DNA of 64,000 nucleotides from Escherichia phage RB16, in the sequence record NC_014467.1; one strand, written 5' to 3'. The notes beneath the pieces were generated by a model, which had not been told where the DNA came from, did no database searches, and saw only the letters and a list, made by a program, of their open reading frames with translations. Below, in pieces: positions 7,041 to 23,623 of the stretch (position 1 is the stretch's first letter; every line of letters begins with the position of its first letter). Made by a program: the position numbers and the translations under genes.

Positions 7041-9329
7041 ATGATTTCAAAACTTAACCCGTTACCAAAGATCCCGTTTGTTGATGGTGTCCCTTCGGAC
7101 ACCACACAAACCCCGATCAACTGGATAATTAACGGCGAAACTCTCGATGGTGCTAAAACCAAAGTCACTAACGAGGGTTCTTTAAACAGGTGCGGTGTTC
7201 TGGTACAAAAGAACGCGGTGCAATTAGAAACCAACACCATTACACAGACTGCAAAAATCAACGAAGTTATCGATCAGGTTAACCTCATTAGTGAAAACCT
7301 CGCGGCTATTTCTGATGAAAGCGTGATTGACAAACTGGATCAGGTTGTTGCTGATGTAGAAGTGTTGAAAGTTGATATGACTGCGGTTCAAGGTTCTACT
7401 GCAAGCAATACCCTGAAAATCCAGGATCTCGATAAAGAGATCGGGACGTGGGACGCTTCAACAGATCCTAAACACCGTACCATTCGAAAAGATATTATTT
7501 TCCTGAAAGGGGAAATGGGTGCGTACCCTGGGTTTAACGAAAACGGCGACGTAGATCCGACATCAACGGGTTCCGGCATGAAATACAAAATCATGACGAA
7601 CGCGCAAGCGATTTCGATTCATGAAGGACGTATTACGCGCCTTGAAGATGATTGGGCTAACTCAGACGTAGGTCATTTAACTGATGAAGTAACCGATCTG
7701 CGTAACGAAATGGGGCCAAAACATTTAGCGACGTTTGAATCTGTATATGTTCGTCTAAACATTATCGGTACTGAGATCACTGGTATCAATTCCGAACTAA
7801 CCAGCATCAACCAATATATCGGTCGTACTGGCACGGGTGGAACTGGTAGTATTTCTGCGCGTATGACTACAGCAGAATCGAATATCGCAACCCTGCAAAC
7901 ACAGATGAATGATTCTGCTACTGGTGTATTACCTCGCGTAATTTCTTTGGAAAATGCTGTCGGTAACTCTCAGATCCCTGGTAGTATTCGTTACGACATC
8001 AGCGCAATCAAACGTGACATCGGTGATATCAACATGATCGTCGGTGAATCAAGCGATGATGGTCTTCGTGGGGAAATGGCTCAGGTTATGACCGATATCG
8101 GTACTGATTCACAGCCTACGAGCATCAAAGGCCGTTTGCTGAACGTTGAGAACACCCAACGTGACGATCACCAGAAACTGATTGACGTTGAATCTGTTGT
8201 TGGTAATACTTCAAGTGGACTCGTTGCGGCTAATATCGCGATGGGTAAAGCTGTTTACGGTGATGCAACGAGTTCTGATCCATTCCTGAAAGACGGTATT
8301 CAGAAAACAGCGCGTGACAGTAAAGCGGCTATCGGTGTAAACACAACCGGATCGGAAACAGGGATCTATAAACTGATTTCAGATTTGACTGCTCGTGTTG
8401 CTGCACTTGAAAGCGGTACTGGTGGCGAACTTGAACAACGTGTTTCTGATTTGGAAACCAATAAAGCATCGCATCAGGACGTTGCAAACGCATTGGTTCC
8501 GTATATTACCGAAGCGGAAGCAGATGTTAAGTACGAACCGAAGAAAATTCCGTTATCGTTTACGCAAAACCTTGTTAGGCGTGGCGATTATATCGAAGGT
8601 GATGACATTTCTTTCATGGTTACGGTAACAGGTGGTAAACTGCCTTATGTCTACCAGTGGAAGAAAGGAACCGCTGATGTAGGTACTAACGCATCGAGCA
8701 TTCTGATCCAAAGCATTACCTCTGCCGACGCTGGCGTGTATAAAGTTGTTGTTACCGATGCAGACAACACCGTAATTACTTCTGACGAAGTGACGGTTGC
8801 TGTTTATCCGGTTCCTCAGTTTGATACTAACCTGGCTGACAAATCGGTGGTTGACGGTGATCCTCTGACTCTGGAAGTTGTATACAGCGGTGGTAAACCT
8901 CCGTACACTTACGAATGGTTCAAAGATAACTCTGTTATCTCTGGGGAAACATCAGCAACATTTACCAAATCTGCTGTTACAAGCGCTGATGCTGGTGAAT
9001 ACTATGTTTCTGTAACTGACGCAATGAACAACCAAAACGATTCAGTGAAAGCAACCGTGACTGTAACACCTCGTCCGGCTCTTGCATTCACTACGGATCT
9101 GAGTGCTACTAAATCATACAGCACAGGTGCTAACATGGATCTTGCTGTTGTCGTGACTGGTGGTAAAACACCATATACGTATAAATGGTTTAAAGACACT
9201 GCGGAAATTTCCGGTCAGACAGGCGCAAGCCTTACCACTGTAGCAGAAGATGGGGTGTATAAAGTCGAAGTGACGGATGCACTAACGACTAAAATAACAT
9301 CAACTGAATGCACGGTAACTGTGGCATAA
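7041..9329 (+). CDS. wac: Fibritin (wac) homolog with a C-terminal extension of three Ig-like repeats
   Basis: N-terminus LP.IPFVDG...INWIINGE resembles the T4 fibritin N-terminus; long coiled-coil-like middle; three ~90-aa repeats GGK(L/P)PY.Y.W(K/F)K...Y.V.VTDA at the C-terminus. Confidence 0.75.
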   Translation: MISKLNPLPKIPFVDGVPSDTTQTPINWIINGETLDGAKTKVTNEGSLNRCGVLVQKNAVQLETNTITQTAKINEVIDQVNLISENLAAISDESVIDKLDQVVADVEVLKVDMTAVQGSTASNTLKIQDLDKEIGTWDASTDPKHRTIRKDIIFLKGEMGAYPGFNENGDVDPTSTGSGMKYKIMTNAQAISIHEGRITRLEDDWANSDVGHLTDEVTDLRNEMGPKHLATFESVYVRLNIIGTEITGINSELTSINQYIGRTGTGGTGSISARMTTAESNIATLQTQMNDSATGVLPRVISLENAVGNSQIPGSIRYDISAIKRDIGDINMIVGESSDDGLRGEMAQVMTDIGTDSQPTSIKGRLLNVENTQRDDHQKLIDVESVVGNTSSGLVAANIAMGKAVYGDATSSDPFLKDGIQKTARDSKAAIGVNTTGSETGIYKLISDLTARVAALESGTGGELEQRVSDLETNKASHQDVANALVPYITEAEADVKYEPKKIPLSFTQNLVRRGDYIEGDDISFMVTVTGGKLPYVYQWKKGTADVGTNASSILIQSITSADAGVYKVVVTDADNTVITSDEVTVAVYPVPQFDTNLADKSVVDGDPLTLEVVYSGGKPPYTYEWFKDNSVISGETSATFTKSAVTSADAGEYYVSVTDAMNNQNDSVKATVTVTPRPALAFTTDLSATKSYSTGANMDLAVVVTGGKTPYTYKWFKDTAEISGQTGASLTTVAEDGVYKVEVTDALTTKITSTECTVTVA

Positions 9330-9364: not shown

Positions 9365-10288
9365 ATGATTACGAACAATCCTGAACAATTGAAGGATGAA
9401 ATTCTTCGTCGTCTGGGCGCACCAATCATCAAAATCGAAATCACACAAGACCAGATTTACGATTGCATTCAACGCGCACTGGATCTGTATGCGGAATATC
9501 ACTACAACGGAACAAACAAAAGTTACATTATCCTTACGTTAGGCGAAGACAACCCGCGAAACGTATTTGATTTGAGTAAAGAACATATTTTCGCGGTTAC
9601 AAAAGTATTGCGTACAAATATCGGTTCATTGGTTTCTATGGACGGTACAGCGGTTTATCCGTGGTTTACTGATTTCCTGATGGGGCTTACTGGTGGTTCT
9701 CTGGGCGGTCGCTGTGCATCAAGCGTGTACGGTATGAATGCATATGGCGCGGATCTGGGGTATTTTACACAGATGATGTCATATCAACGTTCAATGCAAG
9801 AGTTGCTGGCTCCATTACCTGATTACTGGTACAACGACGACACTGGTCAGTTTTGTGTATGGGGTAAAGTCAACAACGGTGATATTATTGTCATTGAAGT
9901 GATGGTAAGATCCTTTGTCGATGTTCCTAGTGCCGTAGGAAGCGTTGCAGGATACGCTACAGCGGGTTCTAACGCAGTAGAAGACCAATCCATAGCCGAC
10001 ATCTACGATAACCCGTATAACGCGGTTGTGGGCGGTGTACGAGCGGGACAGGGTACAACTGTTACTGGTGGAACCTCTGCATATAACAACCGTTGGGTAA
10101 AAGACTACTCAACCGCGCTGGTAAAAGAAATCAACGGGCAAATTCTGGCTAAGTTTCAGGGTATGCAATTGCCTGGTGGTGTTGCTCCAGATGGAACACG
10201 ACTGATTCAGGAAGCGGAAACCAAATTACAAGGATTGCGCGACGAACTGATTTCTATGTCTGACGCAGTTCCTATTATTATGGTGTAG
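9365..10288 (+). CDS. gp13: Neck protein gp13
   Basis: 307 aa against T4 gp13 at 309 aa; synteny between wac and gp14. Confidence 0.7.
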   Translation: MITNNPEQLKDEILRRLGAPIIKIEITQDQIYDCIQRALDLYAEYHYNGTNKSYIILTLGEDNPRNVFDLSKEHIFAVTKVLRTNIGSLVSMDGTAVYPWFTDFLMGLTGGSLGGRCASSVYGMNAYGADLGYFTQMMSYQRSMQELLAPLPDYWYNDDTGQFCVWGKVNNGDIIVIEVMVRSFVDVPSAVGSVAGYATAGSNAVEDQSIADIYDNPYNAVVGGVRAGQGTTVTGGTSAYNNRWVKDYSTALVKEINGQILAKFQGMQLPGGVAPDGTRLIQEAETKLQGLRDELISMSDAVPIIMV

Positions 10289-10296
10289 GGGGAATA

Positions 10297-11043
10297 ATGC
10301 AAAACTGGGATGAAAGTTTATTCGCTCAGTTGTCAACGGGGGAGGGAGTCGATCGCAACTTAAAGGATCAAGTCACTAACCCGTATGTAAACTGGTACAA
10401 ATATAACCCAACACAACAGCTACATGATTCACTTACAGCAGAATCAATCCAGATGAAATCACCTGATATGTATTATGTCAGACGTGAATTTGTGAATATA
10501 GATAAAATTCTGGGTGAAGACCGAGAGTCTAAATTCACGAAATCGTGGAAGATCGCTGCATATATTGAATCATATGCTAACTATGAAGGACAGCGGGACT
10601 TCTTTAGAAAATTCGGGTTGAGTTCTAACGACGAAATGACGCTGGTACTAAATCCGCGTTTATTTGCACATCAAACTGATGGTGGTATTCCGGTGCTGGG
10701 GGATTTGGTTTATTTCCCAATGGATAACAGCTTGTTTGAAATTACATGGGTGGAAGCAGATCCGTTCTATCAGTTCGGTGATCGTCCTCAACGTAAAATC
10801 AACCTGGCTAAATTCATCTACACGGGCGAAGAATTGGCTCCTGAATTGCAGCGAAACGAAGGAATCCATATCGAACCTGATGCAGAACTGGATCTTGAAC
10901 CTATTCGAAATCTTGACGGGCTGGCAGATATTAACATTGAACAGTACGAAGAAGACAAAGAATTTGAAAGAGAAGGTGACGAGTTTATCGAATCTTTTGA
11001 TGTTGTCAACGGTCGCGGTTCTCCGTTTGCAAGTCTACCATAA
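10297..11043 (+). CDS. gp14: Neck protein gp14
   Basis: 248 aa against T4 gp14 at 256 aa; synteny. Confidence 0.7.
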   Translation: MQNWDESLFAQLSTGEGVDRNLKDQVTNPYVNWYKYNPTQQLHDSLTAESIQMKSPDMYYVRREFVNIDKILGEDRESKFTKSWKIAAYIESYANYEGQRDFFRKFGLSSNDEMTLVLNPRLFAHQTDGGIPVLGDLVYFPMDNSLFEITWVEADPFYQFGDRPQRKINLAKFIYTGEELAPELQRNEGIHIEPDAELDLEPIRNLDGLADINIEQYEEDKEFEREGDEFIESFDVVNGRGSPFASLP

Positions 11044-11052
11044 ATAAGTTAA

Positions 11053-11826
11053 ATGGGTATAGGCGGAAGTCTATACCCTCTTCAAAGAGGGGTTTATGAT
11101 ATGGTTGCAAAAATCTCTATAGAACAACGAGAACATCAATTAAAAGAACGTTGTGCGGAATTAGAACTATCTTTTGATGGATGGGTAGACCAATCAGCGA
11201 TCACAAAATATTCAAAGTTTTATGTTGTTTGCAGTAAAGGACATAGAACAGAAAAACAGATCAAACCATTTGTCAACAAAAGTCGTCCAAACGGATGTTA
11301 TTTGTGTTCTCCTAAGATGAAAATATCAAAGGAAAACAGAATCGAGGAAATCAAAACTCTTGCAGATTCAATTGGATATACATTCATAGATTTCGTTGGG
11401 GTGTATAAAGATGCTCACACAAAAATATCAATGGTTTGCGATAAAGGCCATAATTGGGATGTAAGTATAGTTGCTTTTCTCAATCAAGGTCATCGCTGTA
11501 AAAAATGCGCAACGTCTGGGTTCAATACGAACAAACCAGCATACGTATACGTACAATCACTATCTGGAAAATTTCTGAAATTTGGGATAACCAACAGAAC
11601 ACCAAAGAAAAGAATGTGTGCGCAATCAAATAAATCCGTTTATAAACACGAACTGGTTTATCAAAAATTATTCGATAAAGGTATTGATGCAATGAGTATT
11701 GAACAGAAGATCAAACAATCTCTTGTTTGTGGCGTAGTTGATAAATCAGATATGATGGATGGATATACAGAAACAACAGATATATCCAATTACGATAAAC
11801 TGTTGAATATTATAGAAGGAGTATAA
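11053..11826 (+). CDS. Endonuclease-like protein with two zinc-ribbon-like motifs and a GIY-YIG/T5orf172-like C-terminal motif; probable selfish insertion between gp14 and gp15
   Basis: Two Cys/His motifs (C.KGH...GC..C and C.KGH...GH.C..C) followed by PAYVYVQSLSGKFLKFGITNRTPKKR, resembling the T5orf172/GIY-YIG core. No gene occupies this position in T4. Start may be 11101 (better SD). Confidence 0.45.
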   Translation: MGIGGSLYPLQRGVYDMVAKISIEQREHQLKERCAELELSFDGWVDQSAITKYSKFYVVCSKGHRTEKQIKPFVNKSRPNGCYLCSPKMKISKENRIEEIKTLADSIGYTFIDFVGVYKDAHTKISMVCDKGHNWDVSIVAFLNQGHRCKKCATSGFNTNKPAYVYVQSLSGKFLKFGITNRTPKKRMCAQSNKSVYKHELVYQKLFDKGIDAMSIEQKIKQSLVCGVVDKSDMMDGYTETTDISNYDKLLNIIEGV

Positions 11827-11828
11827 AA

Positions 11829-12650
11829 TTGTTTGGATACTGGTATAATAGTTCGCTGCGTAACTACATTGTTCTTATGGGACAATTGTTTAACCATGTT
11901 CAGGTTAAAAGAGTACGCGGCGATCAAGAAAAATTTATTAAGGTTCCAATTACCTACGCATCGAAAGAGAAATTTCTTGCTTCCATGAATAAACTCAACT
12001 ATGCGTATAGTCAGGAAAACGTAGCAAAGACGGAAACCATTTTACCGCGAATGAACCTATCACTGGTCGATCTGCAATATAACGCAATTCGTAAAACCAG
12101 CATAGCGGTCAACCAAAAAATGACGCAATTGCAATCACCCCGCAAGACGATCACACAGTTTAACCCTGTGCCTTATCGTTTAATTTTTGAACTGGGTGTG
12201 TATACGCGATATGAAGACGACATGTTTCAGATCGCAGAACAGATTTTACCGTATTTTCAACCACATTTCAACTGCAAGATTACCGAACTGCATAAGAACG
12301 AAATCACAGTTGACCGAGACATCAAAATCAGTCTCCAGTCGGTTGCACCAGATACAACGTTTGAGGGCGAAGCATCACAGCGCCGACATGTTGAATGGTC
12401 TTTCATGTTCGAATTGCAGGGTTATCTGTACCCGCCTGTTACTGACGTTAAGGGCGAAATCAGAACAGTATACACGGATTTCTTTGCCAATATGAACCCA
12501 TTGGATAAAGATAACTTTGAATCCGTTGATAGTCAAGCCGATCCGGTAGATCTGCCTTTGCAGGATTACACGGGCGAAGAATATATTCAGACGTATTCGC
12601 ACGATAAGCCGATCCCGTCTGGTGATGAACCTCCTAAGCCGAGGGAATGA
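11829..12650 (+). CDS. gp15: Tail sheath stabiliser / tail completion protein gp15
   Basis: 273 aa; N-terminus MFGYWYNSSLRNY and internal YEDDMFQI..QILPYFQPHF match T4 gp15 as recalled; initiates on TTG with AGGAG 8 nt upstream. Confidence 0.9.
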   Translation: MFGYWYNSSLRNYIVLMGQLFNHVQVKRVRGDQEKFIKVPITYASKEKFLASMNKLNYAYSQENVAKTETILPRMNLSLVDLQYNAIRKTSIAVNQKMTQLQSPRKTITQFNPVPYRLIFELGVYTRYEDDMFQIAEQILPYFQPHFNCKITELHKNEITVDRDIKISLQSVAPDTTFEGEASQRRHVEWSFMFELQGYLYPPVTDVKGEIRTVYTDFFANMNPLDKDNFESVDSQADPVDLPLQDYTGEEYIQTYSHDKPIPSGDEPPKPRE

Positions 12651-12652
12651 GA

Positions 12653-14990
<2,338 letters not shown>

Positions 14991-15008
14991 ATTAGAGGAA
15001 ATTCTATA

Positions 15009-17000
15009 ATGGCTTTACAATCTCCAGGTATTGAAACAAAAGAAACATCGGTACAATCTACCGTTGTTCGAAATTCAACTGGTCGCGCTGCCATTGTTGG
15101 TAAATTTTCATGGGGGCCAGCTTATCAGATCCGTCAGATTTCTAACGAAGTCGAACTGGTAAACTATTTTGGTTCCCCAGACAACCTAACCGCTGATTAT
15201 TTCATGAGTGCTGTTAACTTCTTGCAGTACGGTAATGATCTCCGTGTGGTTCGTGTTGTCGATAAAGATGCCGCAAAAAACGCAAGCGCAATTTTTAACC
15301 AGATCAAAACAACCATTGCTTCGCAGGGTTCCAACTACACCGTTGGCGACGTAATTAAGGTAAAATATAGCAACAACGTAGTTGAAGAAAATGGTAAAGT
15401 GTCCAAAGTTGACAGTAACGGCAAAATCCTTGCGGTAGTCATCCCAAGCGAAAAAATCGTTGCTCGTGCAAAACAAATCGGGACTTATCCAGATATTTCT
15501 ACTGGCTGGACTACTGAAATCGTTTCTCAGTCTTCCGGTGTGTCTGCGTCAATCACGATCGATGGTATCGAAAGCGATTCTGGTATCACTCTGTTGAACC
15601 TGGATATTGCTAAAGAAACCATTCAAGGAACTGCGTTCCAGACACTGACCCAGAAATACCAGATCCCGTCTGTTGTGGCTCTGTATCCTGGCGAACTGGG
15701 TTCTACTGTACAGGTGGAGATTATCTCCAAAGCTGCTTACGATTCTGGCGCTATGATTTCCGGTTTCCCTTCTGGGATCTCCGTTAAAAACAGCGGTCGC
15801 TCTGTGATGACTTATGGTCCACAGACCGAAAACCAGTACGCTTTTGTTGTGCGTCGTGGTGGTATTGTACAAGAATCTTTCATCGTGTCAACAGAAAAAA
15901 CCGACAAAGATATCTACGGCGTAAACATCTATATGGATGACTTTTTCGCTAACGGTGGTTCACAGTACGTATTCGGTACTTCTATGAACTGGCCTAAAGG
16001 CTTCTCCGGTATTCTAGAATTTGGTGGTGGTTTGTCCTCAAACGACACCGTAGGCGCTGATGAACTGATGACTGGTTGGGATATGTTCGCAGACCGCGAA
16101 GCCCTGCACGTTCCTCTGCTGATTGCTGGTGCTTGCGCTGGTGAAACTGTAGAAGTAATGTCAACCGTTCAGAAACACGTTATCTCGATCGGTGACGAAC
16201 GTCAGGATTGTACTGTGTTTGTATCGCCTCCGCGTTCTCTTCTGGTGAACATTCCTCTTGCTCAGGCAGTGGATAACATCATTGAATGGCGTATGGGATA
16301 TACAATCAGTGGTAACACTCCGGTAGACAACAACCTGAACGTAAGTTCAAGCTATGGCTTCCTGGATGGTAACTATAAATATCAGTATGATAAATACAAT
16401 GACGTGAACCGCTGGGTTCCGCTGGCAGGTGATATCGCTGGCCTGTGTGTTTACACTGATAGCGTTGCGCAACCGTGGATGTCTCCGGCTGGTTACAACC
16501 GTGGTCAGATCCGTAACTGCATTAAACTGGCTATTGAACCGCGTACTGCACACCGTGACGCGATGTATCAAGTTCAGATTAACCCGGTAACAGGTTTTGC
16601 AGGTGGCTCTGGTTTCGTTCTGTTCGGTGATAAAACACTGACTAATGTTCCGAGTCCGTTCGATCGTATCAACGTTCGTCGCTTGTTCAACATGATCAAG
16701 AAAGACATCGGGGATAACGCGAAATACAAACTGTTTGAAAACAACGACGATTTCACCCGTGCTTCGTTCCGTATGGATACTGGTCAGTACATGACGAATA
16801 TTCGTGCGCTGGGTGGTTGCTATGATTACCGTGTAATCTGCGATATCACGAACAACACGCCAGATGTAATCGATCGTAACGAGTTTGTAGCGACTGTTTA
16901 CGTGAAACCGCCACGTTCTATCAACTACATCACTCTGAACTTCGTAGCAACGTCTACAGGCGCAGATTTCGATGAATTGGTAGGGCCACAAGCCGTATAA
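15009..17000 (+). CDS. gp18: Tail sheath protein gp18
   Basis: 663 aa against T4 gp18 at 659 aa; synteny after gp17; sheath-like composition. Confidence 0.85.
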   Translation: MALQSPGIETKETSVQSTVVRNSTGRAAIVGKFSWGPAYQIRQISNEVELVNYFGSPDNLTADYFMSAVNFLQYGNDLRVVRVVDKDAAKNASAIFNQIKTTIASQGSNYTVGDVIKVKYSNNVVEENGKVSKVDSNGKILAVVIPSEKIVARAKQIGTYPDISTGWTTEIVSQSSGVSASITIDGIESDSGITLLNLDIAKETIQGTAFQTLTQKYQIPSVVALYPGELGSTVQVEIISKAAYDSGAMISGFPSGISVKNSGRSVMTYGPQTENQYAFVVRRGGIVQESFIVSTEKTDKDIYGVNIYMDDFFANGGSQYVFGTSMNWPKGFSGILEFGGGLSSNDTVGADELMTGWDMFADREALHVPLLIAGACAGETVEVMSTVQKHVISIGDERQDCTVFVSPPRSLLVNIPLAQAVDNIIEWRMGYTISGNTPVDNNLNVSSSYGFLDGNYKYQYDKYNDVNRWVPLAGDIAGLCVYTDSVAQPWMSPAGYNRGQIRNCIKLAIEPRTAHRDAMYQVQINPVTGFAGGSGFVLFGDKTLTNVPSPFDRINVRRLFNMIKKDIGDNAKYKLFENNDDFTRASFRMDTGQYMTNIRALGGCYDYRVICDITNNTPDVIDRNEFVATVYVKPPRSINYITLNFVATSTGADFDELVGPQAV

Positions 17001-17022
17001 GTCAAAGGGGCTTTTCAGCCCC

Positions 17023-17030
17023 TATAAATA
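17023..17030 (+). promoter_or_regulatory. T4-type late promoter TATAAATA upstream of gp19
   Basis: Exact TATAAATA 15 nt before the gp19 start, overlapping a hairpin after gp18. Confidence 0.6.
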
Positions 17031-17044
17031 ATCCGAGGTTAAAA

Positions 17045-17530
17045 ATGCTTACTGACATTTTACGCGCCTTTGAATCCGGTGATTTCGCACGTCCGAACTT
17101 GTTCGAAGTAGAGATCCCGTATCTGGGCAAAAACTTTAAATTCAAATGTAAAGCGGCAACCATGCCAGCGGCTACAGTTGAAAAAGTTCCTGTAGGCTAC
17201 CAAAACCGCAAAATAAACCTTGCTGGTGACCGTACCTATGATGACTGGACAATCACAATCTATAACGATGACGCGCACAATACGAGAAACGCACTGGTAG
17301 CATGGTCAAATATGCTGCACGGTATGGGTGATCAAATTAGCGGTGATATTCCAGCGAACTACAAAAAAACTGCTACGGTGAAACAGAAAAACCGTAACGA
17401 AGAGATAACCGCAGATCACACCATTCATGGTTTATTCCCAACTAACGTGGGTGAGGTTACTTTAGACTGGGATTCGAATAATGAAGTATCAACTTTCGAG
17501 TGTACCTTTGCGCTGGACTGGTGGGAATAA
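17045..17530 (+). CDS. gp19: Tail tube protein gp19
   Basis: 161 aa against T4 gp19 at 163 aa; synteny. Confidence 0.85.
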   Translation: MLTDILRAFESGDFARPNLFEVEIPYLGKNFKFKCKAATMPAATVEKVPVGYQNRKINLAGDRTYDDWTITIYNDDAHNTRNALVAWSNMLHGMGDQISGDIPANYKKTATVKQKNRNEEITADHTIHGLFPTNVGEVTLDWDSNNEVSTFECTFALDWWE

Positions 17531-17535
17531 AGAGT

Positions 17536-17543
17536 TATAAATA
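17536..17543 (+). promoter_or_regulatory. T4-type late promoter TATAAATA upstream of gp20
   Basis: Exact TATAAATA followed by hairpin caggggtagcaatacccctat and a T-run before the gp20 start. Confidence 0.5.
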
Positions 17544-17584
17544 CAGGGGTAGCAATACCCCTATCATTATTTTTCGGAGTTACT

Positions 17585-19159
17585 ATGAACTTTTTGGGCT
17601 TTGGCAATGTACTTAGCTTTTTCAAGAATTTCGCCCGTGAGGATGAAATTGAACTTGAACAGCAATTAAAAAATGATACAGGTTCGGTCGCGCCTCCTAA
17701 AAATAATGATGGTGCTTACGAGATCGAAACCGACCTGAATAACCAGAAATATGCTGGCGTATTCCAACAATTTTATTCTGGACAAGATCCAGCGATCCAA
17801 AACAAAGAACAATTAATTAATACGTATCGCGGTATTATGTCTTATCCAGAAGTTGAAAACGCAGTGTCGGAAATTATCGACGATGCGATCGTTAACGAAC
17901 AGGGTAAAGATATCATCACCCTGGATCTGGCTAAAACGAATTTTAGTAAGGCTATTCAAGATAAGATCGTTGAAGAGTTCGACAACGTTCTAAATATCTA
18001 TGACTTTGATAACATGGGCGCACGTCTGTTCCGTGATTGGTATGTGGATTCCCGTATATACTTCCATAAAATCATGCACAAAGACGAAACCAAAGGTATC
18101 CGCGAACTGCGTCAACTTGACCCGCGTTGCATGGAACTGATCCGAGAATCTATCACAGAAACCCTTGATGGTGGCGTGAAAGTATTCCGGGGTTATCGCG
18201 AATTTTTCGTGTATAGCGCTCCTAAAGCTGGCTATACATACAACGGACAGATCTACCAGGCAAACCAGAAGATTAAGATCCCGCGCTCCGCTATCGTGTA
18301 CGCTCATTCCGGTCTGGAAGATTGCAGCAACAATATTATCGGATATCTTCACCGCGCTGTCAAGCCTGCAAACCAATTGCGTTTGCTTGAAGATGCGATG
18401 GTGATCTACCGTATTACCCGTGCTCCTGAACGCCGTGTGTTCTATATCGACGTTGGACAGATGGGCGGTAACAAAGCGACTCAGTACGTGAATAACATTG
18501 CACAGGGCTTAAAAAACCGTGTTGTGTATGATGCCCGTACAGGTACTGTTAAAAACCAGCAGAACAACCTGTCAATGACAGAAGATTACTGGTTGATGCG
18601 TCGTGACGGTAAAGCGATTACAGAGGTTTCTACGCTTCCAGGCGGTCAGAACTTCTCTGATATGGATGATATCAAATGGTTTAACCGTAAGCTATATGAA
18701 GCCCTGCGTGTGCCATTAAGCCGTATGCCTCGCGATGACGGGGGTATGCAAATTGGTGGTGGTGGTGAAATCACCCGTGATGAACTCAAATTTAACAAGT
18801 TCATACGCACACTGCAAATTCAGTTCAGTCCTGTTCTGTCAGATCCGTTAAAAACGAACCTGATTGCGAAAAAAGTCATCACCGAAGATGAATGGGACGA
18901 GAACGTTAGCAAAATTTCGTTTATCTTCCAGCAGGATTCATATTATGCGGAAGTAAAAGACATCGAGATCATGGAACGCCGTCTAACGTTGATGTCTCAG
19001 GTCGAGGGTGTAGTTGGGAAATATGTCTCCCATAAATACATCATGAAAGAGATTCTTCGAATGTCCGACGAGGATATTGACGAACAAGCGAAATTGATCG
19101 AAGAAGAATCTAAAGAAGAACGTTTTAAAAATCCAGAAGCGGAAGAGGAAAACTTTTGA
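17585..19159 (+). CDS. gp20: Portal protein gp20
   Basis: 524 aa, identical length to T4 gp20; synteny. Confidence 0.9.
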   Translation: MNFLGFGNVLSFFKNFAREDEIELEQQLKNDTGSVAPPKNNDGAYEIETDLNNQKYAGVFQQFYSGQDPAIQNKEQLINTYRGIMSYPEVENAVSEIIDDAIVNEQGKDIITLDLAKTNFSKAIQDKIVEEFDNVLNIYDFDNMGARLFRDWYVDSRIYFHKIMHKDETKGIRELRQLDPRCMELIRESITETLDGGVKVFRGYREFFVYSAPKAGYTYNGQIYQANQKIKIPRSAIVYAHSGLEDCSNNIIGYLHRAVKPANQLRLLEDAMVIYRITRAPERRVFYIDVGQMGGNKATQYVNNIAQGLKNRVVYDARTGTVKNQQNNLSMTEDYWLMRRDGKAITEVSTLPGGQNFSDMDDIKWFNRKLYEALRVPLSRMPRDDGGMQIGGGGEITRDELKFNKFIRTLQIQFSPVLSDPLKTNLIAKKVITEDEWDENVSKISFIFQQDSYYAEVKDIEIMERRLTLMSQVEGVVGKYVSHKYIMKEILRMSDEDIDEQAKLIEEESKEERFKNPEAEEENF

Positions 19160-19404
19160 TGAAAGAATTTATCGAAGCAATCAAAAGCGGCGATCTGGTG
19201 GAGGCTAAGAAGCAATTCTACTCCATCATGGAAGACCGTACCGAAGCCCTTCGCCAAGAAATGCGCGTTGAAATTGCAGAAGCAGTCCGAATCGAAGGTG
19301 AAACCGACGAAGACGACAGCGACGATGATAAAGACGACAAAGACGGCGAAAAAGGCGAAAAAGACAAAAAGCCGTCTGAAAAAGACGACAAAGCCGACGA
19401 ATAA
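19156..19404 (+). CDS. gp67: Prohead core protein gp67-like (small acidic protein)
   Basis: 82 aa, highly acidic C-terminus (D/E/K-rich); position between portal and gp68; ATGA overlap with gp20. Confidence 0.55.
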   Translation: MMKEFIEAIKSGDLVEAKKQFYSIMEDRTEALRQEMRVEIAEAVRIEGETDEDDSDDDKDDKDGEKGEKDKKPSEKDDKADE

Positions 19405-19416
19405 GAGGTGTAAATA

Positions 19417-19824
19417 ATGCAACTCGAACTCGAAGATATTAGTACCGAACTTATCGAACCCCATTTAACCGAAGCGAAAGCCCGTGTTGATATTCTGGGG
19501 ATTGATGAAGGTACAATTAAAATTATCGAAAATTTGGCGGTCGATGAACCTCATTTAGCCCTGGCGATGATGTCCATTGTTGAGGGTTTGAGTTTAGATG
19601 AAGTCATTGTTAAACACGTCGATTCTCGCGGTAATGTGGAACGTAAAAAGGACCGCAAAACCCGTGAACGTAACGCGTATCAAACAACTGGTCTTACTAA
19701 ATCTCAACGTCGCCAGATCGCGCGTCGTGCGATGAAAACAAAACGTGCGAATCCTTCTATTACAACCCGCGCACAACGCAAGCGCAAAAAAGCGCTCCGT
19801 AAACGCGCCGCATTAGGGCTATAA
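19417..19824 (+). CDS. gp68: Prohead core protein gp68-like
   Basis: 135 aa, basic C-terminus; position between gp67 and gp21. Confidence 0.55.
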   Translation: MQLELEDISTELIEPHLTEAKARVDILGIDEGTIKIIENLAVDEPHLALAMMSIVEGLSLDEVIVKHVDSRGNVERKKDRKTRERNAYQTTGLTKSQRRQIARRAMKTKRANPSITTRAQRKRKKALRKRAALGL

Positions 19825-19827
19825 ATA
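19820..19827 (+). promoter_or_regulatory. Late-promoter motif TATAAATA overlapping the gp21 start
   Basis: Exact TATAAATA whose last base is the A of the gp21 ATG; the function of a promoter in this position is uncertain. Confidence 0.35.
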
Positions 19828-20474
19828 TGAATGAATCCCAACTCAATGAAAACGGCGATATGCTGCTAATCGAGGAATGGGGTTTACCTTGTGCGGATAT
19901 TTCCGATTCGATTTTAGAATCGGTCGGTGCGTCTAAAGACGGTAAACTTCGGATTGAAGGTATTTTCCTACAGGCTGAAAAAGTAAACCATAATAAACGA
20001 CTGTACCCGAAAAAAGTATTAGAAGAAGCAGTAAATGATTATATCAGAACTCAAGTTAATACCCGTCAAGCACTGGGTGAAATGAATCACCCTCCGCGCC
20101 CGAATGTGGACCCGCGAAATGCTTGCATCCTCATTGAAAAAATGTGGTGGAAAGGTAATGACGTTTGGGGCCGTGCGGTTGTTGTCGAAGGTGACAACGC
20201 GGATGGTGATAAACTTGCGGCGTTAATTCGTGCTGGTTGGGTTCCTGGTGTTTCTTCTCGCGGACTAGGTAAACTTGCCGATTCCGGTAAAGGTTACGGT
20301 ATCGTACAAGAAGGGTTTAAATTGGCTGTAGGTGTTGATGTAGTTTGGGGGCCAAGCGCTCCAGATGCTTACGTTAAACCAATAACCGAATCTCAGCAGA
20401 CGAAACCGCTTGTTGAGAATATTAGTGCTGATGACGCTTTCAGAAAATTATCTGAACGTTTGAAAGGTCTATAA
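19827..20474 (+). CDS. gp21: Prohead core scaffold protease gp21
   Basis: 215 aa; matches T4 gp21 as recalled (LYPKKVLEEAV.DYI, ALGEMNHPPR.NVDP, WWKGNDV.GRA, AAL.IRAGW.PGVSSRGLG, EGFKL.VGVD.VWGPSAPDA). Confidence 0.9.
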   Translation: MNESQLNENGDMLLIEEWGLPCADISDSILESVGASKDGKLRIEGIFLQAEKVNHNKRLYPKKVLEEAVNDYIRTQVNTRQALGEMNHPPRPNVDPRNACILIEKMWWKGNDVWGRAVVVEGDNADGDKLAALIRAGWVPGVSSRGLGKLADSGKGYGIVQEGFKLAVGVDVVWGPSAPDAYVKPITESQQTKPLVENISADDAFRKLSERLKGL

Positions 20475-20477
20475 ATA
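20470..20477 (+). promoter_or_regulatory. T4-type late promoter TATAAATA upstream of gp22
   Basis: Exact TATAAATA about 28 nt before the gp22 start. Confidence 0.6.
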
Positions 20478-20504
20478 ATATCATATCAAACAGGAAACTT
20501 AGAA

Positions 20505-21296
20505 ATGCTAAAAGAACAACTGTTGGCAGAAGCCCAGAACCTGGATACTCCAGTTGAGTTAGACAGCATTTTCGAATCAGTTGAACTTTCTGATGAAGTG
20601 AAAGCGAATTTCACCACTGTATTCGAACAAGCTGTAAAAGCTAACGCTGTAAAACTCGCAGAATCCCATATCAATCAGATCGCGGAACGTTCCGATGAAC
20701 TGGTTGAAGCCCAGGTTGCCGAAAAAGCTGGCGCAATCGAAACACAACTGTACGAAGATGCAAATAAATACTTCGACCACATCGCACAAGAATGGCTCTC
20801 AGAAAACAAAGAAGCCGTATCCCGCGATATTAAGGCCGACTTATTCGAATCTCTGGTTGCTGGTATGAAAGAATTGTTCGTTGATCACAACGTAATTATT
20901 CCAGAAGCCCAGGTTGATGTTGTTGCAGAACTCGAAGATGAACTGACCGAAAATCAGCAGGAAGTTAAGCGCCTGTTTGAAGCGAATCAGGCTCAGGCTA
21001 AAGAGATCGCCAACATGAAACGCGATACAATCGTTTCAGAAAAAACCAAAGATTTAACCGAATCCCAGGTTGAGAAAGTTCAGAACCTGATCGAAGGTTT
21101 GGAATATTCCGACAAGTTCGAATCCAAACTGACCGCAATTGTCGAAATGGTAGCGACTAAAGCGGAAAAACAGGTTGACGAGAGTACAAATACTCAGACA
21201 ACCACTAAAGACGATTTTGTTCCGGTAAATGAAAATGCTCCGGCAGAGAAATCGAAGATCAATAAATATGTTGAAGCGGCTAAACGCCTTTCCTAA
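20505..21296 (+). CDS. gp22: Prohead core scaffold protein gp22
   Basis: 263 aa, acidic helical protein; position between gp21 and gp23; T4 gp22 is 269 aa. Confidence 0.8.
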   Translation: MLKEQLLAEAQNLDTPVELDSIFESVELSDEVKANFTTVFEQAVKANAVKLAESHINQIAERSDELVEAQVAEKAGAIETQLYEDANKYFDHIAQEWLSENKEAVSRDIKADLFESLVAGMKELFVDHNVIIPEAQVDVVAELEDELTENQQEVKRLFEANQAQAKEIANMKRDTIVSEKTKDLTESQVEKVQNLIEGLEYSDKFESKLTAIVEMVATKAEKQVDESTNTQTTTKDDFVPVNENAPAEKSKINKYVEAAKRLS

Positions 21297-21317
21297 TCTT
21301 TTATAAGGTAAGAAACA

Positions 21318-22892
21318 ATGTCTAAGAAAAACGAATTGATGGAAAAATGGAACGATCTTCTGGAATCTCAGGAAGGTTTACCGGATATCGCTACCAAATC
21401 CAAAAAACAACTGGTCGCTGCCATTCTGGAAGCACAGGAAAAAGACGCTGAAACCGATCCGGTTTATCGCGACGAAAAAATTGTGGAATCCTTCGGTGGT
21501 TTCCTGGCAGAAGCAGAAATTGCTGGCGATCATAACTATGACCCGACCAACATCGCTTCTGGTAAATCCAGCGGTGCTATCACCAACATCGGTCCTGCTG
21601 TAATCGGTATGGTTCGCCGTGCGATCCCTAACCTGATTGCGTTCGACATTTGCGGTGTTCAGCCTATGACTGGTCCTACTGGTCAGGTGTTCGCTCTCCG
21701 TGCTGTCTACGGTAAAGATCCTCTGGCTGGCGGTACTCCGGCAGATGTTCGTGAAGCATTCCATCCGATGTTTGCCCCGGATACCATGTATTCTGGTGAA
21801 GGTGCTCACACTGCATTCTCGAAAATCACCACTGGTACAGCGATCGCTACTGGCGCTATCGTATACCACATTTTCCAGGAAACTGGTATTGCATACTTCC
21901 AGAACGTTACCTCTGGCAACGTAACTGTAACTGGTGCTGATCCGGCTGCTCTGGATGCTGCTGTAATCGCAGAGAACGAAAAAGGTACTCTGGCTGAAAT
22001 CTCTGTTGGTATGGCTACCAGTGTAGCAGAACTGCAAGAGAACTTCAACGGTTCCAGCTCTAACCCGTGGAACGAAATGGCTTTCCGTATCGACAAACAG
22101 GTTATCGAAGCCCGTAGCCGTCAACTGAAAGCACAGTATTCTGTTGAACTGGCACAGGATCTTCGCGCTGTTCACGGTATGGACGCTGACGCAGAACTGT
22201 CTGCAATTCTGGCAACTGAAATCATGCTGGAAATCAACCGCGAAATCGTTGATCTGATCAACTATACCGCTCAGGTTGGTAAATCTGGTTTCACCCAGAC
22301 CGTAGGCTCTAAAGCTGGCTCCTTCGACTTCCAAGATCCGGTAGATATTCGCGGCGCTCGTTGGGCTGGTGAAAGCTACAAGGCTCTGCTGATTCAGATC
22401 GACAAAGAAGCGAACGAAATCGCACGTCAAACAGGCCGTGGTGCTGGTAACTTCATCATCGCTTCCCGTAACGTGGTTTCCGCTCTGGCTCGTATCGACA
22501 GCGGCATCACTCCGGCAAGTCAAGGTCTCCAGAAGACTCTGAACGTTGATACCACGAAAGCAGTATTCGCTGGTGTTCTGGGTGGCACTTACAAAGTGTA
22601 CATCGACCAGTACGCTCGCCAGGATTACTTCACCGTTGGCTTCAAGGGCGACAACGAAATGGATGCTGGTATCTACTACGCGCCATACGTTGCACTGACC
22701 CCGCTGCGTGGTTCTGATCCGAAGAACTTCCAGCCAGTAATGGGCTTCAAAACTCGTTACGGTATCGGTATCAACCCGTTTGCGAACTCTCGCTCTCAGG
22801 CTCCGGCAGATCGTATCACCTCTGGTATGATCAGCAAAGAAATGTGCGGTAAAAACGCATACTTCCGTAAGGTCTGGGTTAAGGGACTTTGA
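21318..22892 (+). CDS. gp23: Major capsid protein gp23
   Basis: 524 aa; near-collinear identity to T4 gp23 as recalled (GPAVIGMVRRAIPNLIAFDICGVQPM, QVFALRAVYGKDP, DKQVIEA.SRQLKAQYS.ELAQDLRAVHGMDADAELS, YYAPYVALTPLRGSDPKNFQPVMGFKTRYGIGINPFA). Confidence 0.97.
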   Translation: MSKKNELMEKWNDLLESQEGLPDIATKSKKQLVAAILEAQEKDAETDPVYRDEKIVESFGGFLAEAEIAGDHNYDPTNIASGKSSGAITNIGPAVIGMVRRAIPNLIAFDICGVQPMTGPTGQVFALRAVYGKDPLAGGTPADVREAFHPMFAPDTMYSGEGAHTAFSKITTGTAIATGAIVYHIFQETGIAYFQNVTSGNVTVTGADPAALDAAVIAENEKGTLAEISVGMATSVAELQENFNGSSSNPWNEMAFRIDKQVIEARSRQLKAQYSVELAQDLRAVHGMDADAELSAILATEIMLEINREIVDLINYTAQVGKSGFTQTVGSKAGSFDFQDPVDIRGARWAGESYKALLIQIDKEANEIARQTGRGAGNFIIASRNVVSALARIDSGITPASQGLQKTLNVDTTKAVFAGVLGGTYKVYIDQYARQDYFTVGFKGDNEMDAGIYYAPYVALTPLRGSDPKNFQPVMGFKTRYGIGINPFANSRSQAPADRITSGMISKEMCGKNAYFRKVWVKGL

Positions 22893-22922
22893 TCCTAAGC
22901 TGTTGAAAAACAACGACTTTTT

Positions 22923-22984: not shown

Positions 22985-23623
22985 ATGAAACACATCATTT
23001 ATAAAATAACAAACACCATCAATAACAAAATATATGTTGGTGCTCACTCAACCGAAGATATCAACGATTCATACATGGGTTCCGGTATTGCAATCAAAAA
23101 AGCGCAAAAGAAATATGGTATGGAACATTTCACAAAAGAAATACTTCATGTATTTGATACCCGTGAAGAAATGTATGAGAAGGAAAGGGAAATAGTTGAT
23201 ATTGAATTCATAAATCGACCAGATACATATAATGCTGGTATTGGTGGTAAAGGTGCTCCAATGGCGTTGATTGGATGGAGTGATGAACAACGCAAGCTGA
23301 TTTCCGAAAATACTTCGAAAGCTATGCAAACTCCAGAAATGCGCGAACGCCTTTCAAAAATAAAAACAGGGAAGAAGCAATCAGAAGAATCCAACAGGAA
23401 GCGTTCAGAGACTATCAAAGCTATGTACAAGGGTTCTGCATTCGACAGAACCGGATCTAAGCTCACAGACGCGCACAAGGCCAAAATAAGCCGTTCTGTG
23501 TCGATAGATGGAGTTGTTTACGCAAGCGGTTCCGATGCTTCTAAAGCGTTGGGGCTTTCTCGATCTGGCCTTGATTACCGTTTAAAGAGTGACAAATTTC
23601 CTGAATGGAAATTCGTTGCATAA
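22985..23623 (+). CDS. GIY-YIG homing endonuclease (seg-like; same position as T4 segD between genes 23 and 24)
   Basis: N-terminal GIY-YIG motif IIYKITN...KIYVGAHS; basic C-terminal half typical of a DNA-binding domain; inserted between gp23 and gp24. Confidence 0.8.
   Translation: MKHIIYKITNTINNKIYVGAHSTEDINDSYMGSGIAIKKAQKKYGMEHFTKEILHVFDTREEMYEKEREIVDIEFINRPDTYNAGIGGKGAPMALIGWSDEQRKLISENTSKAMQTPEMRERLSKIKTGKKQSEESNRKRSETIKAMYKGSAFDRTGSKLTDAHKAKISRSVSIDGVVYASGSDASKALGLSRSGLDYRLKSDKFPEWKFVA

Follow-up and report, generated by a model that had tools for sequence, protein, structure and literature searches.

Homing endonuclease genes (HEGs) of the T5orf172 type have been surveyed by Barth, Dunham & Seed (2023; PMC10448857), who found zinc-finger modules of the CapR/DUF723/DUF4397 type in 200 of 229 T5orf172 homing endonucleases, often repeated and lying at the end of the protein opposite to the T5orf172 domain, and who described the interchangeability of such genes. 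One T5orf172 nuclease, Odn (gp88) of ICP1, cleaves DNA in vitro, and its E180A mutant is inactive (PMC8263062). MobE of T4 exerts its action within the 5' part of nrdB, the next gene downstream, and flanking sequence is co-converted (Wilson & Edgell 2009; PMC2790892), and in the T-even phage U5 mobE is replaced at one site by the unrelated endonuclease gene hef (cited in PMC2988022). T4-type HEGs are known to be controlled by masking of their ribosome-binding site, and hairpins at this site have been reported for the intron HEGs, for segB and for mobE of Aeh1 (PMC2988022). Here we describe a gene located between gp14 and gp15 in a 64,000-nt stretch of the genome of Escherichia phage RB16 (NC_014467.1), in the following called the window, which represents an RB43-like T4 relative of the genus Pseudotevenvirus with Lw1 as the nearest phage. 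An inspection of the letters alone, in the following called the sequence-only reading, had pointed to an endonuclease-like gene inserted between these two genes. This observation is confirmed with a corrected start site, and the gene is very probably a free-standing HEG of the T5orf172 branch of the GIY-YIG superfamily.

The open reading frame (ORF) listed at this position comprises 257 codons (11053-11826, plus strand). It represents a real gene, since near-identical copies are present in seven phages and an exhaustive HMMER search retrieved 5213 relatives of its product from the library (E≤1e-3). Most likely, the true start of the gene is ATG 11101, located 48 nt downstream of the listed one, which would yield a protein of 241 amino acids. 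A Shine-Dalgarno sequence (AGAGGGG, 11086-11092) precedes this codon by 8 nt, the 241-aa form is the annotated version in the phages Lw1, JC03, leE, and Cronuts, and the nearest database homologs have the same length. ATG 11053 was rejected as start because it sits in an intergenic hairpin that also occurs, ATG included, in phages without the gene. Residue numbers refer to the 241-aa form throughout. In the PHROGs database, the protein is matched by phrog_681, labelled 'endonuclease', at 8e-63, and the public near-identical copies are annotated variously as 'hypothetical protein', 'endonuclease', or 'putative GIY-YIG nuclease family protein'. A tblastn search for paralogs of the gene within the window found none.

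The protein is modular. Its N-terminal part contains two Cys/His motifs with the pattern Cys-x3-His ... Cys-x2-Cys (for the ligands, see Table 1), which had been described as zinc-ribbon-like in the sequence-only reading; both are real and lie within stretches matching the CapR homology domain of Pfam (PF21817; 65 bits against a cut-off of 24.2, in two stretches). Among 54 aligned homologs, the six cysteine residues are conserved to at least 90%. In the AlphaFold model, module 1 consists of a helix and three strands predicted with high pLDDT, and module 2 has the same fold elements. With these modules placed N-terminal to the nuclease domain, the protein shows the architecture of the CapR-type zinc-finger T5orf172 HEGs, which is defined by at least one such module in this position.

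The C-terminal segment YVYVQSLSGKFLKFGITNRTPKKR (amino acids 148-171, nt 11542-11613), in which a resemblance to the T5orf172/GIY-YIG core had been seen, holds the family-invariant residues Y150, K160-F-G162, and R171. Together with the further invariant residues E201, G221, and E224 of the 54-homolog alignment, they form a Tyr ... x-x-Gly ... Arg ... Glu pattern with GIY-YIG-like spacing. The AlphaFold2 model of the protein (pLDDT 93) predicts a three-stranded sheet flanked by helices, as expected for a GIY-YIG fold, in which Y150 is located in the first strand, K160-F-G162 provides the x-x-Gly of the second strand, R171 lies in helix 1, and E201 in a later helix. Judged from the order of the secondary-structure elements in the model and from its position in the helix following the third strand, E201 is likely the equivalent of E75 of I-TevI and of E180 of Odn. 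In their C-terminal region, 20 of the 54 full-length homologs are matched by the Pfam model MUG113 and 10 by T5orf172, and the domain is thus related to proteins that match the family models. The ICP1 protein gp130/tcgB aligns with the window protein over the full length (BLASTP 2e-14, 25% identity), and its Pfam T5orf172 match (amino acids 295-387; 21.2 bits against a cut-off of 20) aligns to amino acids 146-239 of the window protein. The T5orf172/GIY-YIG assignment rests on homologs, predicted fold, and conserved residues, because the Pfam T5orf172 model gives no direct match; the search with GIY-YIG and T5orf172 models that had been suggested accordingly succeeded for the homologs (MUG113 and T5orf172) and failed for the protein itself, and the proposed resemblance was borne out by the three lines together. 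A comparison of the family profile with the chains of the PDB gave spurious Cys-rich matches only and no solved relative. By analogy to Odn, which has the same domain family with the conserved catalytic Arg and Glu, the nuclease domain would be able to cut DNA.

The distribution of the gene among related phages was derived from the gp14-gp15 span length of megablast hits and from annotation in about 46 resolvable genomes; the junction sequence was read directly in 12 relatives, i.e., in an alignment of 13 genomes including the window, and the states of the others are those implied by span and annotation. Megablast hits to the region 10297-12650 comprise Lw1, with 97.3% identity, and about 60 further phages of Escherichia, Cronobacter, Klebsiella, Enterobacter, and Citrobacter, with 88-94%. 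The junction is polymorphic. In about 27 genomes (e.g., GAP161, Margaery, and CfP1) it is empty, with an intergenic region of 58-80 nt; seven genomes (Lw1, UPEC03, JC03, leE, Cronuts, phi1_146010, and phi1_146015) carry the window-type gene; about 10 (e.g., RB43, Miller, and HMGUkp1) contain an unrelated 204-aa gene, mobE; and two (Fraggle_ER53 and phi1_146002) contain an internally deleted mobE. The segment present in the window takes the place of 23 nt, AACAACCCATACAGGAAAATAAA, in the intergenic region of empty-site phages, and its left end coincides with the 3' end of the hairpin GGGTATAGgcggaagtCTATACCC, which is found in the sequenced GAP161/Lw1-type junctions irrespective of whether they are empty or contain the endonuclease gene or mobE; RB43 and CfP1 have a different hairpin there. 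Hence relatives that are otherwise collinear differ in whether this one site holds the gene, as expected for a HEG, and the gene is neither universal at this position nor without a predicted nuclease fold, the two counts on which the sequence-only reading had offered to be refuted. A 73%-identical ortholog with the full architecture is located at the same gp14/gp15 junction on the metagenomic contig SRR23468733_6149 (4001-4726). This contig stems from a more distant T4-like phage, in which gp13-gp17 are 62-80% and the flanking genes 73-80% identical to those of the window, and the shared position points to a long-standing site fidelity. The ortholog has a GTG start and gp15 retains its ATG there; upstream of gp13, the contig encodes a pectate-lyase-like protein where the window has wac.

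The gene is far more similar between phages than its flanks are, which is indicative of horizontal spread. Comparison of the window with JC03, leE, Cronuts, and phi1_146015 showed 99.0-99.7% nucleotide identity for the endonuclease gene, 90.4-90.9% for gp14, and 90.0-90.4% for gp15, and the near-identical copies span phages of Escherichia, Cronobacter, and Klebsiella. Near-identity begins just upstream of the start codon and continues to about 105 nt inside gp15, where it gives way to about 10% divergence; up to position 11934 there is no mismatch to JC03, leE, and phi1_146015 and a single one to Cronuts. The same tract is apparent within one species, represented by JC03 with and GAP161 without the gene. 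To the left of the junction, these phages differ at 19 of 2247 positions (0.85%) and in the 2253 nt following the tract at 38 positions (1.7%), whereas nt 1-69 of gp15 contain 16 differences (23%), namely the change from ATG to TTG, the codon change A19Q, and otherwise silent ones, so that a single amino acid is altered. The start of gp15 was therefore co-converted with the gene. The suspicion of a selfish homing element is thereby well supported, by presence and absence among collinear relatives, by stronger conservation than that of the flanks, and by the co-converted tract reaching into gp15.

The genes at this locus are arranged in the order wac, gp13, gp14, endonuclease gene, gp15, gp16, and gp17. 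An exact T4-type late promoter, TATAAATA, does not occur within several kb of the gene, the nearest one being located at 16374. In the window the motif is found nine times against 2.7 expected, always on the plus strand (e.g., at 16374, 17023, 17536, 19820, 20470, and 22954), and since it is absent between gp13 and gp17, transcription probably enters these genes from a more distant upstream site. No sigma-70-like site for the gene was detected on the plus strand either. A promoter of its own was thus rejected, and the gene is treated as a promoter-less cassette. Accordingly placed, it would be co-transcribed with the late gp13-gp17 morphogenesis operon and translated from ATG 11101, perhaps damped by a small hairpin over the ribosome-binding site. 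The stem of this hairpin, predicted in all occupied alleles, has only 5-6 bp, and for Lw1 no outer stem involving the start codon is predicted; a role as strong regulator was rejected for these reasons, and the hairpin is kept as a possibility only.

From what is known of the family, the two CapR-type modules would bind a specific DNA sequence and the C-terminal domain would nick or cut nearby, with R171 and E201 as predicted catalytic residues and with Y150 and K160-F-G162 standing in for the GIY and YIG motifs. When a carrier and a phage devoid of the gene infect the same cell, the enzyme would cleave the latter at its gp14/gp15 junction, and recombinational repair templated by the carrier genome would transfer the gene along with the 5' end of gp15. 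The pattern of polymorphism points to the 23-nt empty intergenic segment or to codons 1-23 of gp15 as the most likely target, and the many silent differences between the gp15 alleles of carriers and of empty-site phages may guard the carriers against self-cleavage.

The mobE gene of RB43 (RB43ORF216w) occupies the same insertion point, has a related 5' leader and start-codon region, and likewise replaces the ATG of gp15. Its product is an unrelated 204-aa protein, in which Pfam detects a NUMOD3 motif only and which the records annotate as MobE/HNH-type homing endonuclease. The leader of about 24 nt common to the mobE alleles and the endonuclease gene, TCTTCRAAGAGGrtTTTATGATAT, includes the ribosome-binding site; it is identical to that of the window gene in the HMGUkp1-type mobE alleles and differs by a few base changes in RB43. 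Both genes share the left junction, and the positions of their start codons differ by 4 nt. The start codon of gp15 is TTG in all six carriers examined and ATG in all three empty alleles, with ATT at the corresponding codon of the mobE alleles. The TTG is preceded by GAAGGAG within the 3' end of the endonuclease gene. In the mobE alleles, annotators pick a downstream ATG, by which gp15 is shortened by at least 16 residues. The decayed mobE copies of Fraggle_ER53 and phi1_146002 have internal deletions of about 440 and about 380 nt, respectively, and both remnants are followed by the same gp15 tract and the same downstream switch point as in the carriers of the endonuclease gene. The simplest reading of these sequences is a replacement of one endonuclease gene by the other, through recombination at the shared leader on one side and at the 5' end of gp15 on the other. 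That the gp14/gp15 junction serves more generally as a shared landing pad, on which unrelated endonuclease genes displace one another, is a tentative proposal that we regard as possible and somewhat doubtful. If it were true, one gene would have invaded a site occupied by the other, with the leader of the resident and the 5' end of gp15 as short homology arms, and larger exchanges of the morphogenesis module would have their left end fixed at the endonuclease gene.

An example of such an exchange may be seen in the comparison with Lw1. From position 1 of the window to about 11100, identity to Lw1 ranges from about 80 to 96% (mean near 89%); at the left edge of the gene it rises to 99-100% and stays there to about 21750 inside gp23, where it falls. 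The gene thus marks one end of a recently exchanged block of 10.6 kb reaching from gp15 to gp22. A 'HEG island' pattern and HEGs at 'boundaries of genetic exchange' have been described (PMC10448857), and the endonuclease genes bounding the Lw1 block match it. Just past the other end of the block, between gp23 and gp24, the window contains a second free-standing HEG (22985-23623, plus strand). Its 212-aa product has a GIY-YIG domain and an I-TevI-type DNA-binding domain (1.7e-27) and thus is a true member of the I-TevI/Seg type. The gene is absent from Lw1 and present in many Pseudotevenvirus genomes, with 46 records covering at least 80% of the region; in T4, the gp23/gp24 position is occupied by segD. 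On the minus strand, an ORF of 511 codons (21378-22913) runs antisense to the major capsid gene gp23 and most likely is a by-product of gp23 codon usage. The fibritin gene wac, upstream of gp13, encodes 762 amino acids in the window; the Pfam domain Fibritin_C lies in the middle of the protein (amino acids 373-489) and is followed by Ig-like, Hoc-like repeats, so that Wac does not end at the fibritin C-terminal region. The length of wac in annotated relatives is 2040-2295 nt.

Several points weigh against the assignment as HEG. The C-terminal 107 residues (amino acids 135-241) match neither the Pfam models T5orf172 (PF10544), MUG113 (PF13455), and GIY-YIG (PF01541), which were taken as the standard for a direct match, nor NCBIfam models, even at E≤10, and a literature search for a cleavage or homing experiment on the gene or a close relative retrieved none. 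Four GAP161-like carriers share a single right-hand tract endpoint, which may reflect one transfer instead of repeated homing. The Q19 allele of gp15, to which the gene is linked, is found next to mobE in RB43 and next to mobE remnants in Fraggle_ER53 and phi1_146002 as well; the silent changes may therefore be polymorphism of the donor lineage and not immunity mutations. The shared endpoint would also fit a passenger gene that no longer spreads by itself and is moved by ordinary recombination or, in trans, by another hotspot endonuclease, e.g., of the mobE type. Trans-homing of the defunct I-TevIII by T4 MobE is documented (PMC2790892), two unrelated endonuclease genes share the exact site and leader, and the 10.6-kb block in common with Lw1 demonstrates large recombinational exchanges at the locus. 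We nevertheless consider a passenger unlikely: the invariant residues of the nuclease domain and the zinc ligands are intact in every copy, without frameshifts, whereas mobE at the same site has decayed in two phages, and the 73%-identical ortholog with its full architecture at the same junction argues for selection on the protein.

Two further explanations assign the protein another function. Odn is a T5orf172 nuclease that was re-purposed against PLE satellites (PMC8263062), and domains derived from HEGs were repeatedly recruited in phage-satellite conflicts (PMC10448857), so the protein might be a domesticated nuclease employed against competitors, e.g., by cutting satellites or the genome of a co-infecting phage at other positions. 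Odn, however, is no homing element but a weapon against satellites, and its N-terminal domain, which serves for targeting, is RepA_N-like, whereas the window protein contains CapR modules, as is typical of the members that home, and the presence or absence of the gene at one site with a co-converted flank is a signature of homing; as the gene is also absent from most relatives, domestication appears very unlikely. We give still less credit, hardly any, to a function mainly as DNA-binding regulator in the manner of CapR or of the I-TevI autorepressor, which would tune late genes such as gp15 and for which the nuclease domain would be irrelevant. The domesticated relative CapR represses capsid genes (PMC8096241, as cited in PMC10448857), and the endonuclease gene provides the Shine-Dalgarno sequence and the TTG start of gp15, but CapR has no nuclease domain, while that of the window protein is complete and conserved, and the gene is dispensable in about 60% of the relatives. 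For the same reason, and owing to its location in a phage structural operon, the gene does not belong to the CapR satellite repressors. A free-standing HEG of the T5orf172 branch thus remains the best explanation by far.

Table 1 Coordinates of the features discussed for the gp14-gp15 region. Positions refer to the window unless another stretch is named
Feature	Position	Strand	Basis or remark
wac (fibritin)	7041-9329	+	
gp13	9365-10288		
gp14, neck protein, left flank	10297-11043	+	Pfam T4_neck-protein 8.5e-86
In-frame 16-codon upstream extension	11053..11100	+	Probably untranslated leader; ATG 11053 sequence also in empty-site GAP161 and Margaery
Hairpin GGGTATAGgcggaagtCTATACCC after gp14, 3' end = left insertion junction (11078)	11055..11078	+	Predicted in every fold of the leaders
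Small hairpin, 3' arm with Shine-Dalgarno sequence; part of the leader common with mobE alleles	11078..11092	+	Fold prediction
Inserted segment, absent from empty-site relatives	11079..11828	+	13-genome junction alignment
Endonuclease coding sequence, 241 aa + TAA stop (most likely start)	11101..11826	+	Shine-Dalgarno sequence, annotation in relatives, homolog length, phrog_681
CapR-type zinc-finger DNA-binding module 1, aa 7-72, ligands C44/H48/C66/C69	11119..11316	+	PF21817 3.8e-6 (fragment)
CapR-type zinc-finger DNA-binding module 2, aa 77-139, ligands C113/H117/C133/C136	11329..11517	+	PF21817 2.2e-12 (fragment)
GIY-YIG-superfamily (T5orf172-like) nuclease domain, aa 145-241	11533..11823	+	Invariant Y150, K160, G162, R171, E201, G221, E224
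gp15, tail sheath stabiliser, right flank	11829-12650	+	Pfam T4-gp15_tss 1.7e-97
gp15 start codon compared	11829-11831; compared stretches L001 2938, L003 2918, L002 2306		
Co-conversion tract, first ~105 nt of gp15 including TTG start	11829..11934	+	Identity tract against carriers
99-100% identity block with Lw1	11100..21750	.	Sliding-window identity
Decayed mobE, Fraggle_ER53	L004 2300-2473		
Decayed mobE, phi1_146002	L005 2300-2607		

The family, its architecture, and its genomic behaviour are already published and near-identical genes are already in GenBank, so that the gene is a clear but ordinary example, which leaves the existing knowledge of these elements unchanged and will not surprise the specialist. 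Its value lies in a firm and specific annotation for near-identical copies that have been labelled variously, and in a single junction that displays the whole life cycle of HEGs, being empty, invaded by two unrelated families, or occupied by a decaying gene. Pairs of the same species with and without the gene fix the recombination endpoints to a few nucleotides. The locus therefore lends itself to measurements of how specific the poorly characterised T5orf172/CapR endonucleases are for their targets, and also to testing whether module exchange in T4-like phages is delimited by such genes.

Among the known systems, intron- or intein-encoded endonucleases do not include the window gene, as it is intergenic and gp14 and gp15 are intact; a group I intron or another structured RNA around the gene was ruled out by the lack of an Rfam match in 10800-12100 at E≤1. 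The I-TevI/Seg-type enzymes share with the window protein the catalytic fold of the GIY-YIG superfamily, the modular 'beads on a string' construction, and the homing lifestyle in T4-like phages. They differ in their DNA-binding modules and in the N-terminal location of the nuclease, and the protein does not belong to this type, having no Pfam GIY-YIG, NUMOD, or I-TevI_DNA-bd match and the reversed domain order. This is the sole comparison in which the order is reversed. The sequence-only reading had called zinc motifs N-terminal to the nuclease unusual, which does not hold, because this order is typical of T5orf172 homing endonucleases (PMC10448857) and is also present in ICP1 gp130.

The mobE gene of T4 and hef of U5 resemble the window gene in being free-standing, intergenic, and replaced in relatives by an unrelated endonuclease gene, and the target of T4 mobE, in the co-converted 5' end of the gene that follows it, parallels the one predicted here, which may lie in gp15; they differ in their locus, nrdA/nrdB instead of gp14/gp15. 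One structural match of the protein in BFVD is annotated 'Hef-like', and a literature search for a paper connecting Hef of phage U5 with T5orf172 found none; this label is the only lead to a possible kinship with Hef. The closest homologs in characterised genomes outside Pseudotevenvirus are T5.141 of phage T5 and proteins of RB49, JSE, and Phi1. T5.141, the nearest homolog in a classical phage (36.6% identity over 94% of the length), also has two CapR domains and no direct Pfam T5orf172 match, and functional data were found neither for it nor for the window gene. Its gene is likewise part of a structural operon, but it is inserted at another site, between the tail assembly chaperone and tape measure genes, and in another phage family.

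The best agreement is with the T5orf172 HEGs described by Barth et al. (PMC10448857), especially with ICP1 gp130/tcgB and its relatives, in which repeated CapR modules are located at the N-terminus and the T5orf172 nuclease at the C-terminus. The window protein deviates from the members of that survey in scoring below the Pfam T5orf172 threshold, and its host belongs to the RB43-like T4 lineage, which was not highlighted there. In common with them, the gene is free-standing, lies beside essential morphogenesis or terminase genes at a boundary of genetic exchange, and occupies a site at which unrelated HEGs are interchangeable.

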